This document shows, piece by piece, positions 19,120-61,235 of a DNA stretch of 64,000 nt. A program made the position numbers and the translations under genes. Origin of the DNA: an uncultured bacterium (GTDB taxonomy: Bacteria > Babelota > Babeliae > Babelales > Vermiphilaceae); NCBI GenBank assembly GCA_963840685.1, contig CAWIZM010000001.1:752286-816285 (forward strand), given 5' to 3'. Under the pieces are notes generated by a model. That model was given only the letters and a program-made list of their open reading frames with translations. It made no database searches and had not been told where the DNA came from. The stretch's first letter is position 1. The number at the start of each line of letters is the position of its first letter.

Positions 19120-19275
19120 CTTGGAATTAGAAAATTAAAAAGCCCGTTCGCCCTGAGCTTGTCGAAGGGTACGGGCCTATGCTTCGACCCAGCCTTCGTT
19201 AAAACTTCGGCGGGCACGGCAGGCTGAGGCCATGGTCCGACGTAGCCTATCAGCACGAACGGCCTAGAATAATTA
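19120..19275. repeat. GC-rich palindromic intergenic repeat element (family member)
   Basis: ccctgagcttgtcgaagg / ccttcg... arms; shares segments with 20733..20805, 26885..26965 (reverse orientation) and 41640..41770. Confidence 0.7.
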
Positions 19276-19277
19276 GC

Positions 19278-19808
19278 TTATGTACATAACTCAGTGATTG
19301 TAGTGACTGCATGGGTAATAGCTTGTTCAAGGTCAGTAGAATTTTCAGAGAAATTAGTCAGCACATAATCAGGCACTTCTTCTCTGTTCAATGGACGCCC
19401 TATGCCAAACCGCAAACGGGGAAAATCAGCACCACATGCAGTAATAATTGAGCGTAATCCATTGTGTCCCTTTGCGCTGCCACCCATTTTGATGCTTACA
19501 TTGCCAAACGGTTTTTCCAGTTCATCATGTACAACCAAAATATTTTCTGGCTTAATGCCTTTTTTAAGGAGCGCTGGAATTACCCTGCCTGAACTGTTCA
19601 TGAATGTTTGTGGTTTAATCAACGCGATATGGTGGGTGCCAATGGTGATTTCAGCGTACTCCATTTCGCCTTTTTTTTGCCATACTGCACCATGGGCATG
19701 TGCAAGTGCATCAACTACACGAAAACCAATGCTGTGGCGTGTGTGGTAATATTTTGTTCCTGGATTACCTAATCCTATAATTGCTTTGATAGTAAGTTTT
19801 TGTGACAT
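19278..19808 (-). CDS. pth: Peptidyl-tRNA hydrolase
   Basis: IIGLGNPG..Y..TRHSIGF, GHNGLRSI motifs. Confidence 0.9.
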   Translation of the reverse strand: MSQKLTIKAIIGLGNPGTKYYHTRHSIGFRVVDALAHAHGAVWQKKGEMEYAEITIGTHHIALIKPQTFMNSSGRVIPALLKKGIKPENILVVHDELEKPFGNVSIKMGGSAKGHNGLRSIITACGADFPRLRFGIGRPLNREEVPDYVLTNFSENSTDLEQAITHAVTTITELCT

Positions 19809-19810
19809 GA

Positions 19811-20731
19811 TTACTTCTCGTTATAAAGCTGTTTGATCTGTTGCACAATTATGGCACTTGTATCAAATAGTTCAATTTTATTGTGGTGTGGCAGGTCTTT
19901 TAATGCGATCGTATTTGAAACAAAAACTTTTTCAAAATTACTTGTTTGCACTTTGCTTAAGGCATCATTGGAAAATATTGGATGCGCAAAATAACCAAAA
20001 ATATGTTTGACCCCTTTTTTTGTTAATTCATCACACACGTGCAATGCGGTACCGCCCGTATCGATAATATCGTCAACGATTATTGCAGTGGGTGTAGTGC
20101 AGGTGTCAGATATACCAATAATTCTGGTCTTGTCGTGCGCGTAACGTTCTTTGGTGAATTGTATGGTATTGCAGTTTAATTTTTGTGCAATTGCATGTGC
20201 ATGATTATAAGCGCCTTTGTCCACGGCAATTAATGATACGCCATGCGATAGATCAATATGTTGTCTGCTATGTTGGGCGATAAAATCGACAAGAGAAAGC
20301 GATTGGAAAGGTATCGTGAAAAAACTTTCCAATATCGGTGTATGTGCTTCAATGGTGATTATTTGATCTATTCCTGCATTTTGCAGTGATTGTGCAACAA
20401 CATGCGCTGGGCCAAATTTACCGGGAATATGACTTTTTTCTTGTCGTGAATAACCAAAATAAGGAATCACGGCAGTAATTTTTGCGCATCCGGCATTTTT
20501 AAGTTCGTGCGCCAAAAATGCTACATGCAAGATCTGTTCTTGTGGAAGTGGATGGGTTGATTGAATGATGACGGCATGTTTGTTGTGCCAAAAGTTTGCG
20601 TTTTCAAAAGTGACTTGCGTTTCTCCATCTGCAAACCGTATGACTTGCGCATAGTGCAAAATTTTACCACATTGTTCGGCTATGCGCGATGCTAAGCTTG
20701 ACGGCCCAAGGGTTATAAATTCGAAGTCCAT
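19811..20731 (-). CDS. prs: Ribose-phosphate pyrophosphokinase paralogue 1 (no leader)
   Basis: Prs motifs; about 70% identical to paralogue 2 over the catalytic region. Confidence 0.85.
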   Translation of the reverse strand: MDFEFITLGPSSLASRIAEQCGKILHYAQVIRFADGETQVTFENANFWHNKHAVIIQSTHPLPQEQILHVAFLAHELKNAGCAKITAVIPYFGYSRQEKSHIPGKFGPAHVVAQSLQNAGIDQIITIEAHTPILESFFTIPFQSLSLVDFIAQHSRQHIDLSHGVSLIAVDKGAYNHAHAIAQKLNCNTIQFTKERYAHDKTRIIGISDTCTTPTAIIVDDIIDTGGTALHVCDELTKKGVKHIFGYFAHPIFSNDALSKVQTSNFEKVFVSNTIALKDLPHHNKIELFDTSAIIVQQIKQLYNEK

Positions 20732-20732
20732 T

Positions 20733-20805
20733 GGTCGTTCATCCTGAGCTTGTCGAAGGATAGACCCGACCCTTCGACAAGCTCAGGGCGAACGGGTTTA
20801 GGGAT
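20733..20805. repeat. GC-rich palindromic repeat (perfect 17-bp stem cctgagcttgtcgaagg / ccttcgacaagctcagg)
   Basis: Inverted repeat visible directly; GC-rich island in AT-rich context. Confidence 0.7.
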
Positions 20806-20908
20806 AATTTTTTTAAAACGTAATAAATTTTGAGCTCATGCTACCTACAAAAAAAGCGACTAACTCATTTGCTAGTCGCTTTTCTATATTTGTATATTCG
20901 CAGTAAAT

Positions 20909-59119: not shown

Positions 59120-59123
59120 AGCT

Positions 59124-59939
59124 TTATAGATGTTCGAGTAGTTTGGTTAAAAAATAATTGCTCATTAAGATCATAATGGAGCTGAGCACTACGCTTTGTG
59201 TGGTTGCGGTTCCAACACCACGCGCACCGCCCGACGTGTAATAACCTTTGTAGGTGCCTACCCATGATAATAACAAACCAAAGACGATCGATTTAATTAA
59301 ACCGCTCATGATGTCTTTTAATTCTACGTATGATTTAATACTGTGCTGATAATCTTCAGGGCTCAATTCCAGCATGTGCACACAGACAAGATAACCACCA
59401 AGAACGCCAAAGACCATAGAAAATGCGGTCAAGCAGGGTGACATTATGGTGCTTGCTACTATGCGGGGTACAATCAGGTACTGAAAGGGGTCAATTCTGA
59501 GGGTGCGTAAGGCATCAATCTGTTCGGTAATACGCATGGTACCAATTTCTGCGGCAATGGCAGACCCTGCGCGGCCAGTTACCATGAGACCAGTTAATAC
59601 GGGACCAAGTTCACGCACCATGCCGAGTGCAACTACTGCGCCAATAAATTGCTCTCCGCCAACGCGCTGAAAGCCAATGTAGCTTTGGAGTGCAACTACC
59701 ATGCCGGTGAAAAGACCGGTAAGCATGATGATGTTAAACGATTCAACGCCGATAGTATTCATTTGGGCGAATGTTTTATGCAGCTTGAGCTTGGTGGTAA
59801 CGCATGTTTTTAATGCGTGTACAAAGAAGAGCGAAAATCTGCCTAGCATGGTACAGATATGCAGTGTCCGATTGCCTATGAAGTTAATGTAGCGTATAAA
59901 CAAAATCGGACTCTTTGTAGTAAGACTATCGCTATGCAA
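59124..59939 (-). CDS. mlaE: ABC transporter permease, MlaE-like
   Basis: Five TM, adjacent to mlaF, MlaE-length. Confidence 0.75.
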   Translation of the reverse strand: MHSDSLTTKSPILFIRYINFIGNRTLHICTMLGRFSLFFVHALKTCVTTKLKLHKTFAQMNTIGVESFNIIMLTGLFTGMVVALQSYIGFQRVGGEQFIGAVVALGMVRELGPVLTGLMVTGRAGSAIAAEIGTMRITEQIDALRTLRIDPFQYLIVPRIVASTIMSPCLTAFSMVFGVLGGYLVCVHMLELSPEDYQHSIKSYVELKDIMSGLIKSIVFGLLLSWVGTYKGYYTSGGARGVGTATTQSVVLSSIMILMSNYFLTKLLEHL

Positions 59940-59944
59940 AGTAA

Positions 59945-60283
59945 TTATGCGGTAGTTTGCTCTGTTTTAATACCATTGAGTTGAGCAACATATTTAGATG
60001 TTGCAATTTGAGATGATTTCATCAATGCCAACAATAATGAGCCAAAAAGAAATGCAGCGCCAAGGCCCCAGGTTATTTTTTGGAATAGGTCTTGACCGCC
60101 AGAACCACCAAAAAGCATTTGTGTGCCGCCACCAAATGCACCAAGTCCCATACTACCTTTACCTTTTTGAATGAGGATAAGAAGAACTAAAAGAACGCAT
60201 ATAAAAATATACACGCTGACAAGAAGGCCATATACAATTGACATGTAATACTCCGTTTTATGCTGTACATCGTAGTTTATCAT
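59945..60283 (-). CDS. secG: Preprotein translocase subunit SecG
   Basis: Two TM with a Gly-rich loop GLGAFGGGTQMLFGGSGGQ. Confidence 0.7.
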   Translation of the reverse strand: MINYDVQHKTEYYMSIVYGLLVSVYIFICVLLVLLILIQKGKGSMGLGAFGGGTQMLFGGSGGQDLFQKITWGLGAAFLFGSLLLALMKSSQIATSKYVAQLNGIKTEQTTA

Positions 60284-60341
60284 CTTAGATATGTTGGATG
60301 ATCTGATGCACTGCTTGGTTTAATAGGTTGAATATATATAT

Positions 60342-61112
60342 TTAGTATGTACATACTATTATTTTTTGCAATTTTTGAAAGTCTAAACTCGCACTGCCAA
60401 TTAAGAATCCGTTGATACCAGCGACTGCTTTTAACTGTGCGGCATTGTTTTCATCAACGCTTCCGCCATACAGAAAGGTGATTTGTGTATTTGGTAGGTG
60501 TCTTACGCAATAGTCACGCAACCAAGCAAAGACTGCTGTCAGGTAGTCTGTTGGAGGGGTAATGCCGGTACCGATAGCCCAGATTGGTTCATAGGCGATA
60601 ATGCACGCATTATGCGTATGCGCGGTGAGTGCTTCACTGGTGAGCATCTTGCGTATGGGAAGTAATTGTTGTTCCAAGAGCGCATAGGTGTTGTTTTGCT
60701 CATACTCTGTTTTTGTTTCACCAATGCAGATGATTGGTGTAATGTTTTGTTCAAGTAAACAGTTAACTTTTTTTCCTATTTGCTCGTTTGTTTCGCCATA
60801 ATAGGCACGCGCTTCACTGTGGCCAATAATGCAATAGGTGCATCCAACTTGTGCAAGTGATGGTGCATCTACCTGACCGGTATAGGCACCATGCATATAT
60901 TCTGAGCAGTTTTGTGCACTAACATGGAGCGCGCTGTTTGCAAATAATTGGGCTATGGCATGCAGGGCAGGGAATGACGGTGCTATCACCAGGGTAGTAT
61001 CTGGATAGGCGCTCAACTGCAGGAGTGCTGGTTGATTATGCGTGCAAAAGGTGAGCGATTGTTCAAATGAACTATTCATTTTCCAGTTTGCTATGTATAA
61101 AAATGGCTTCAT
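60342..61112 (-). CDS. tpiA: Triosephosphate isomerase (start at internal Met; the ORF extension to 61202 runs through a repeat element)
   Basis: YIANWKMN, AYEPIWAIGTG, GGSV motifs. Confidence 0.88.
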   Translation of the reverse strand: MKPFLYIANWKMNSSFEQSLTFCTHNQPALLQLSAYPDTTLVIAPSFPALHAIAQLFANSALHVSAQNCSEYMHGAYTGQVDAPSLAQVGCTYCIIGHSEARAYYGETNEQIGKKVNCLLEQNITPIICIGETKTEYEQNNTYALLEQQLLPIRKMLTSEALTAHTHNACIIAYEPIWAIGTGITPPTDYLTAVFAWLRDYCVRHLPNTQITFLYGGSVDENNAAQLKAVAGINGFLIGSASLDFQKLQKIIVCTY

Positions 61113-61124
61113 ATAGTTGGCGGA

Positions 61125-61235
61125 TGTATAGTTTTTTTCCTGGATTGGCCTGCCCGCCATAGCTTCAGCGACGGCTGGGCTTCGCAGCTCCGACTTCGCC
61201 AAGGCTTCGACGGATACCCTCGCCCACCGTTATAT
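61125..61235. repeat. GC-rich palindromic repeat element
   Basis: cctgcccgccatagcttcagcgacggctgggc...cgccaaggcttcgacgga shared with other copies, including the in-CDS copies. Confidence 0.7.

Follow-up and report, generated by a model that had tools for sequence, protein, structure and literature searches.

The sequence analysed here, called the window below, is a stretch of 64,000 nucleotides (nt) from contig CAWIZM010000001.1 of an uncultured bacterium assigned to the Vermiphilaceae, and the elements in question are short GC-rich islands scattered among its genes. The window has a base composition of 38% GC, and Candidatus Dependentiae / Babeliales supply the closest named homologues of its glucokinase (56-61% identity) and its aspartyl-tRNA synthetase, AspS (68-69%); the known members of the Dependentiae (TM6) are residents inside protists. 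An earlier note on this DNA had listed five such islands and had proposed that they form a single dispersed family; all five are present where it placed them. We found that the GC-rich islands are one genuine dispersed repeat family, a mosaic of four short modules, here named A, B, C and D, whose palindromic units of ~30-45 nt are repeated in the window (Table 1). Copies additional to the five were found at 11669-11735 and 14271-14324, as an inverted pair at 55184-55333, as a fragment at 55388-55401 and, probably, at 45479-45504.

Table 1. Repeat copies and insertion sequence in the window (coordinates of the window, strand as recorded; ORF, open reading frame)
Feature	Position	Strand	Details
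Two tandem B units	11669..11735	+	C-terminal tail of ORF 10243-11826; encode SSSAKASADKESSFAKATADR; nhmmer E 1.8e-7, 1.6e-9
B unit and partial second unit	14271..14324	+	In frame in glucokinase ORF 14125-15258; encodes PPSLKIRQAGRQTG...; nhmmer E 6.2e-7
IS630-family insertion sequence	16726-17683		ORFs 17256-17621 (HTH_Tnp_IS630) and 16733-17299 (DDE_3); TA target duplication; ends GCAAAC.../...GTTTGC
Mosaic copy	19140..19264	+	A 19143-19176; B 19187-19220; C 19228-19245; A-type terminal piece 19250-19263
Inverted A dimer	20733..20805	.	Arms 20736-20759 and 20771-20794; 24 nt, 92% complementary
A end, B-like unit and C	26910..26957	+	A-type terminal piece 26910-26923; B-like 26922-26953; C 26940-26957; nhmmer E 1.4e-6
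B element	41691..41755	-	Outer inverted ends TGTCCTTCG...CGAAGTAGGGCC; B unit 41707-41740; nhmmer E 2.2e-7
Short terminator hairpin AAAGCCCGTTCGCGGACGGGCTTTTTTT, tentative member	45479..45504	-	A-unit flank GCCCGTTCGC...ACGGGC in common
Inverted D pair	55184..55333	.	Perfect 29-nt arms (GTCGTTGCGAGCTTGCGAAGCAATCCAGG); 92-nt AT-rich spacer
Solitary A-type terminal fragment CAGCACGAACGGC	55388..55401	-	Found by blastn-short
Mosaic copy	61134..61232	.	D-tail fragment 61134-61147; B (-) 61148-61179; B (+) 61187-61217; nhmmer E 1e-6, 3.9e-6

When the islands were compared with one another by blastn-short, the A block 19143-19188 matched 20752-20796 with E=7.7e-12, the C block 19228-19245 matched 26940-26957 with E=1e-4 and the B block 19182-19221 matched 41706-41746 with E=4e-4, and the matches of the islands fell almost exclusively on other islands. 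In the window, to which all copy counts apply, the 17-mer CCTGAGCTTGTCGAAGG occurs 3 times (shuffles expect 0.00), the 24-nt B core with up to 3 mismatches 4 times (0.00) and CCCGTTCGYSCTGA 5 times (0.03). A profile of the B unit, trained on the same 8 units that it recovers, returned by nhmmer exactly 8 units with E-values from 1.6e-9 to 3.9e-6, the next match being at E=0.87; the unit tally is 3 A, 8 B and 2 D. The pairwise similarity of the islands is therefore not at chance level, and we give next to no credence to the explanation that they are alike by chance or base composition alone, which is refuted by the shuffle counts and the pairwise E-values; the single GC-rich family proposed earlier is borne out by the same common blocks and counts.

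The units follow one plan, in which a short unpaired end tag (the CGTC variants GTC, TGTC, CGTG and CGTTC) is joined to a GC-rich, imperfectly paired stem whose loop is conserved. Module A reads (C)CGTTCG-YCC-TGAGCTTGTCGAA-GGR and has the tag CGTTC, in place of which some copies in contigs of the IMG/VR database have TGTC; module B reads CC-N-CCTTCGCTAAAGCTACGGCGGRCA-GG, its opposite strand beginning with TGTC, CGTG or CCTG, and GGTC or TATC being also found as tags there; module C is GGCCATGGTCCGACGTAG; and module D reads aGTC-GTTGC-GAGCTTGCGAA-GCAAT-CCAgg, so that it has the tag aGTC and a CCA tail. These tags are related to the CGTC consensus and do not match it strictly. The loop is GAGCTTG(T)CGAA in A and D, and TAAAG/TTTT in B. 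In D, the first pairs are G.T/T-A, with 5 Watson-Crick pairs and an 11-nt loop; in A, 3-4 covarying pairs surround a conserved stretch of 13 nt or, alternatively, 6-8 pairs close a 5-nt loop when tandem G.A is counted, columns that are invariant and hence give no covariation signal. A long stem for the A unit was also considered and set aside, the ungapped covariation test backing just the two pairs that adjoin the core. Units occur singly, as inverted dimers or as nested mosaics and composites, and the reading frames free of stop codons, out of six, number 4 in B, 5 in A and 6 in D.

Each locus was then folded and compared with shuffled sequence. Significantly more stable than the shuffles were the A dimer (20728-20805; z=-7.2 and -6.6), the D pair (55184-55333; z=-11.1) and the tandem B units in an ORF (11665-11745; z=-3.6) only; folding was weak at 19135-19270, where the two strands gave z=-1.7 and z=-2.8, and three further loci, to which we return below, did not stand out. 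The perfect 17-bp stem seen earlier at 20733-20805 is present, and the word palindromic fits the units; for entire loci, the description as hairpin-forming applies only in part.

Most copies between genes are placed within ~5-15 nt of the upstream gene's stop codon, or in a hairpin that was already there. The mosaic copy 19140-19264 starts 13 nt beyond the pth stop codon and its two ends pair (CCGTTCG/CGAACGG), and the copy 26910-26957 lies ~15 nt beyond the stop of ORF 26973-28109. The A dimer 20733-20805 is found between the ompH terminator, which is separate and canonical, and the start codon of prs, which it abuts. At aspS, 41640-41690 is the native terminator hairpin and 41691-41755 the repeat proper, inserted between the stem of this terminator and its T-run. 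The D pair separates divergent genes for a MoxR-like ATPase and dCTP deaminase, and the fragment 55388-55401 matches 19250-19272, together with its AT-rich flank (91% over 23-24 nt). The hairpin 45479-45504 resembles 19140-19176 in its flanks alone and may only tentatively be counted in the family. Finally, the copy 61134-61232 is flanked by the stop codon of gatB and the genuine start of tpiA. In ORF 60342-61202, residue 37 is the first of the TIM domain, a canonical start (ATG AAG CCA TTT..., MKPFLYIANWKMN) is at 61110, and the first 31 codons read through the repeat; the N-terminal extension suspected earlier is indeed spurious, an artefact explained by the absence of stop codons from 4-6 of the six frames of the units.

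These positions bear on the possibility that the copies are ordinary intrinsic terminators, or hairpins stabilising the 3' ends of mRNAs, which evolved in place and became alike through common constraints. Four of the five intergenic copies between tandem genes start ~5-15 nt from the upstream stop codon or from a native terminator hairpin, and a T-run follows three copies in the direction of transcription (19140-19264, 26910-26957 and 41691-41755), the copy at 41691 rebuilding a stem before the aspS T-run. For these three the terminator role suggested by the earlier note is plausible; 61134-61232 is followed by an A-run, 20733-20805 comes after a separate canonical terminator, and a simple terminator scan called no element except the tentative 45479-45504. 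However, blocks of 17 to 30 nt recur without change at loci that are not related, ORFs included, other phyla have these cores too, and the orthologous sites of close relatives are empty or occupied by a different module. An origin in place as terminators is, in our opinion, rather unlikely.

The statement that all copies sit at gene ends or between genes holds for the five islands listed earlier, but not for 11669-11735 and 14271-14324, which lie in frame inside ORFs; the family is therefore not purely intergenic. Among the orthologues of ORF 10243-11826, the insert is missing from P0242, P0245 and P0246, while P0243, P0244 and P0247 contain related DFAKAS... peptides; a FAKAS-type peptide is thus variably present in the tail, and one orthologue has such a peptide elsewhere in the protein. 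The glucokinase insert, of net 42 nt or 14 amino acids, falls between two strands of the N-terminal domain and is unique to the window species: it is absent from all 11 closest homologues (P0002-P0012, one of them 87% identical) and from the DNA of the related contigs L005 and L006. In the AlphaFold model of glucokinase, whose mean predicted local distance difference test score (pLDDT) of 70 is moderate, the insert lies between strands E29-36 and E57-65, with pLDDT <50 at residues 41-53. In-frame insertions that leave the reading frame intact were seen in conserved protein genes, namely glk here, prs in L005, and murB and a rhodanese-like gene in L221. Since the units are open in 4-6 of the six frames, and since the cases examined lie in a loop, a C-terminal tail or a terminus, these data show that in-gene insertions are tolerated in a poorly modelled loop between predicted strands, in a C-terminal tail and at protein termini. 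A further stretch of ORF 10243-11826, ACGTATCTGAGGGCGAACGGTTA at 10345-10367 with the peptide YLRANG, looks similar to module A's outer arm, GCTCAGGGCGAACGG; this could be the decayed remnant of a third in-frame insertion, or a chance resemblance.

The species of the window was seen in several metagenome assemblies (L001-L004, 99.4-99.95% DNA identity), and close relatives have ~80-91% protein identity. The spacer after aspS contains a B element in the window and an A unit in L221 (91%), and is empty in L218, L219 and L220. In L220, whose AspS protein is 89% identical, the aspS terminator is plain, with the stem ...GATGCGGCC followed by ATATTTTTTT; in the window, the B element between stem and T-run is 65 nt long, begins with TGTC and has GGCC at both bounds. 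Conversely, L005 has in prs a B-type insertion of 24 residues (ESNFTKASDFVKASTDKSTNRS), which is lacking from the window prs, and upstream of prs a D-type unit where the window has the A dimer. In L221, judged against L218, murB contains 29 inserted residues (DFAKASNFAKASMDRSADRQ), and the rhodanese-like protein is extended at its C-terminus by a B-encoded stretch. Differing A-type elements were found downstream of pth in L137, L138, L151 and L199, and others near this gene just upstream (L149) and ~4.4 kb downstream (L162). No target-site duplication was found at any filled/empty pair, nor beside the D pair. This reciprocal presence and absence at orthologous sites indicates that modules were gained recently and independently at multiple sites in this Dependentiae clade. 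Moreover, modules were much sparser in ~700 kb from 80 other Dependentiae-like loci than in the window, a comparison that, from a biased sample, suggests an expansion of the modules in the window's clade. Two contigs of relatives end inside repeats (L221 at 5396-5428, A-type; L005 at 5495-5522, D-type), as is expected if the repeats break short-read assemblies. These two contig ends, and the position of one mosaic copy at the border of a 2.7-kb segment specific to the lineage, bear on the earlier note's suggestion that the copies may be recombination hotspots.

The earlier note had also considered that the family could consist of miniature transposable elements with inverted repeats (MITEs). 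The only insertion sequence in the window, of the IS630 family, is absent from the same-species contig L001; it is thus polymorphic between strains and therefore recently active, and its transposase, encoded at 16733-17621, is the one that would mobilise such MITEs. The D pair, with its 29-nt perfect inverted arms around an AT-rich core, has a shape that agrees with this proposal. By contrast, the ends of the insertion sequence (GCAAACCTCAG.../...GTTTGC) are unrelated to the modules, neither they nor the TA duplication are found at any module, and the filled/empty pairs are without target duplication; in addition, the 30-45 nt units are far shorter than MITEs, are combined as a mosaic and do not have the plan of terminal inverted repeats plus core. 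With no target duplications and no matching insertion sequence, the modules are not MITEs, and mobilisation by the IS630-family transposase appears very improbable.

It was also considered that the loci are genes or cis-elements for structured small RNAs (sRNAs), of which the repeats would be functional RNA domains. The A dimer 20733-20805 matches Rfam family RF02901 (AaHKsRNA41, Aggregatibacter sRNA 41) weakly, with 50.8 bits against a gathering score of 97, the CUGAGCUUGCCGAAG hairpin alone being in common; the stem base pair that adjoins the conserved loop covaries; and similar repeats of Coxiella give rise to sRNAs (PMC5896051). However, an Rfam search of the whole window returned no match at the gathering thresholds, the copies, some of them within coding sequence, lie in both orientations with respect to transcription, covariation is confined to 1-2 pairs, and most loci are not thermodynamically distinctive. 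An RNA function as the reason for the family is, for us, quite unlikely.

The module cores were found well outside the Dependentiae. The A 17-mer occurs in >120 IMG/VR contigs, with GC contents from 32% to 72%, often as an inverted dimer (CCGTTCGCCCTGAGCTTGTCGAAGGG...GGTTCGACAAGCTCACCACGAACGG); a genuine tailed-phage contig carries an A dimer after the capsid and tail-chaperone genes, and the 17-mer was also found in unannotated plasmid spacers of Moraxella, Sphingobium, Variovorax, Comamonas, Polaromonas and Methylotuvimicrobium. Neither the 5,426 E. coli genomes searched nor the records of cultured phages contained a match to the A hairpin. Over 129 copies, the pair flanking the 17-mer is C-G in 64, U-A in 32, U-G in 17 and unpaired in 7, and the next pair outward is paired in 86; the covariation score of A was reached by none of 500 shuffles and exceeded all slid controls too. 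The B 19-mer was found in 7 viral contigs and the D 20-mer in 2. Searches with two related sequences, the 26-mer GTCATTGCGAGCGAAGCGAAGCAATC and GTCATCCTGAGCGAAGCGAAGGAT, gave 105 and 25 contigs, respectively; they have the loop GAGCGAAGCGA(A) in common, their stems differ in a complementary manner (ATTGC/GCAAT vs ATCCT/AGGAT), and the D and A modules of the window are the CTTG-loop versions of these two types. Judged by these matches, the A, B and D cores are not private to the lineage of the window. In the IMG/VR contig L098, at 9215-9255, an A core lies within the loop of a B-like hairpin (GCCCGCCATAGC-CCTGAGCTTGTCGAAGG-GGCGACGGCGGG), and modules therefore nest in one another in unrelated organisms too.

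A gene linked to the modules was sought in L055, an IMG/VR contig with two A dimers, and in the Moraxella plasmid, where just phage structural genes and unrelated transport genes were found. A HMMER search with the 36-residue B-encoded peptide against 1.84 billion representative proteins returned its own cluster alone, the query being too short to inform. It is conceivable, though doubtful, that A, B and D form one ancient and still-spreading superfamily of GTC-tagged hairpins, whose loop, GAGC-N3-4-CGAA, is conserved from Dependentiae to Proteobacteria and to >100 uncultivated phage contigs. If so, horizontal spread via phages would be implied, together with a universal host-encoded copying mechanism or a conserved factor binding the loop, and the clade of the window could be a tractable place to find the mobiliser of palindromic repeats that have no transposase of their own, because of its recent reciprocal insertions into essential genes and its small genome.

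Other features of the window deserve a mention. The segment 16600-19281 (2.7 kb), absent from L005, contains the insertion sequence as well as a second prs paralogue (17890-19032) whose N-terminus is extended by ~75 residues; the segment partly duplicates 19898-20197 and 16227-16274, and terminates at the mosaic repeat 19140-19264. Three genes that are intact in relatives are split here into several ORFs, nrdB (37195-38554), a secretin gene (45571-47767) and a sulfatase gene (32626-34184), and are either pseudogenes or the result of assembly indel errors; compared with L220, one nucleotide of nrdB is deleted near 37459 and one is inserted near 37926, and a same-species metagenome contig encodes an intact protein of 334 residues. 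At 1864-7421 there is a tandem array of five or six paralogous genes with a period of ~1.1 kb, blocks 62-90% identical and some weak ankyrin-repeat matches, which looks like a locally amplified effector-like family, and at 21631-24997 there are three or four diverged tandem paralogues (repeat families D1, D3, D5 and D7) with no Pfam match. Paired genes at 43428-44185, one for a nucleotidyltransferase (Polbeta/NTP_transf_2) and one for an NTase substrate-binding protein, look like a defence or toxin-antitoxin pair; they belong to a block between aspS and enolase that L220 is without, the aspS and enolase genes being adjacent there. A Bro-N domain ORF (25288-26136), of a type typical of phages and large DNA viruses, stands in an otherwise cellular gene neighbourhood.

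Taking the copies and their relatives together, we suggest that the modules are non-autonomous palindromic repeats, a selfish DNA of the kind represented by repetitive extragenic palindromic (REP) elements, bacterial interspersed mosaic elements (BIMEs) and Rickettsia palindromic elements (RPEs), a reading to which we assign a probability of about 0.7. They would probably be copied in trans, either enzymatically or through replication or repair at the hairpin, a mechanism already proposed for REPs with a CGTC tag. The copies that end in a T-run (19140, 26910 and 41691) would, once inserted, probably serve as terminators or 3' mRNA stabilisers, and the remaining copies are probably neutral passengers.

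The closest comparison is with the REPs of prokaryotes, which Di Nocera, De Gregorio and Rocco (2013) sorted into GTAG- and CGTC-tagged superfamilies, the latter including Neisseria dRS3 and Rickettsia RPE-4 and RPE-6 (PMC3733652). CGTC REPs are small palindromes of 20-40 bp with an unpaired CGTC, TGTC or CCTC tag, 8-9-bp stems whose first two pairs are A-T, 4-5-nt loops and a CCA tail; they are found mostly as head-to-head dimers, <20 bp from the upstream ORF, they have in-frame intragenic copies (RPE-4 and RPE-6 among them) and are occasionally inserted in other palindromes, and they occur in five phyla with no associated transposase (PMC3733652). The published families encode the peptides VIPAKAGI, VIAGLDPAI, VIPWLDHGI and VILDGRNIEF (PMC3733652). 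The modules of the window agree with this description in having a related, though not strictly identical, tag, and in the CCA tail (in D), the inverted dimers, the position after the upstream ORF, the in-frame intragenic copies, the insertion into a palindrome, the presence in several phyla and the absence of a linked transposase. They differ in that their tags are more variable (CGTTC, CGTG, CCTG) and that Dependentiae are outside the five phyla reported, and the peptides SLSKG, FDKLR and ATADK were not found in the published supplement. The modules are probably REP-type elements working like CGTC REPs and RPEs, and would represent additional families of the CGTC superfamily, outside every named family.

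Several observations weigh against this reading. Among the ~55 ORFs scanned with Pfam, no mobilising enzyme and no Y1 transposase were found, the sole transposase being that of the IS630-family element with its unrelated ends. Stems of 8-9 bp with 4-5-nt loops are replaced here by ~5 Watson-Crick bp with 11-13-nt loops (6-8 'pairs' with tandem G.A), and the six-frame translations of A, B and D did not match the peptides of CGTC-1 to CGTC-4. Folding at 26900-26962, 41676-41762 and 61130-61235 was no better than in shuffles. Module C had no counterpart elsewhere, its 18-mer giving in a wider collection of genome contigs a single match, in Verrucomicrobia, apparently by chance. The two in-gene copies (11669-11735 and 14271-14324) show no differences among the four same-species contigs, and because of this identity the in-gene insertions predate the sampled strains. 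Movement is deduced from presence and absence between genomes that are ~80% identical in DNA, and at the intergenic sites loss could have produced the same pattern.

The modules have practical consequences, since they produce spurious ORF extensions, as in tpiA, odd insertions in housekeeping proteins and broken metagenome assemblies, and for these reasons annotators of such genomes need to mask them. Full-text searches with the motifs as DNA and as peptides returned nothing relevant, nor did a search for literature on palindromic repeats in Dependentiae; three or four repeat modules are documented here of which no printed sequence was found in the literature that can be searched. With their reciprocal differences in insertions, the close relatives offer a natural data set on the copying of REP-type elements without a dedicated transposase.

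Other known systems are more distant. The GC clusters of yeast mitochondria are mobile modules, short, palindromic and rich in GC, of a genome that is very AT-rich, mostly intergenic and with optional in-frame copies in the protein gene var1; they are organellar and unrelated in sequence to the modules described here, and serve as an analogy only. The RPEs, reportedly described by Ogata et al. in 2000, are also palindromic repeats; their host is an obligate intracellular bacterium with an AT-rich genome, and they have entered its housekeeping genes in frame, apparently leaving these functional. They differ from our modules, which are mosaic and GC-rich, in the phylum of the host and, for RPE-1, in a greater length (~100-150 bp); the peptides of RPE-4 and RPE-6, the two covered by the comparison, are unrelated to the module translations. 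The REP/BIME repeats of E. coli and the REP doublets (REPINs) of Pseudomonas, which are mobilised by REP-associated tyrosine transposases (RAYTs), share short palindromes, inverted doublets, mosaics after genes and the lack of target duplication, but have a GTAG tag at the ends of their units. In the modules GTAG occurs inside stems of the C block and of B-like units only, never at a unit end, and since the tag is absent they are not GTAG REPs; no RAYT gene (IS200/IS605-like tyrosine transposase) was found in the 64-kb window. QMITE2 of Coxiella burnetii (Wachter et al. 2018) is likewise REP-containing, resides in an intracellular bacterium, lies mostly in 3' untranslated regions and overlaps the ends of ORFs, and copies related to it occur in distant Proteobacteria (PMC5896051). 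It is set apart, by its description and not by sequence, through its full length of 150-190 bp with terminal inverted repeats, its direct repeats of 7-11 nt and its GTAG REP (PMC5896051). The family of the window is probably a known type of selfish DNA in a new host lineage, and would add Dependentiae, a candidate phylum, to the case of Rickettsia, from which such DNA within protein-coding genes is known.

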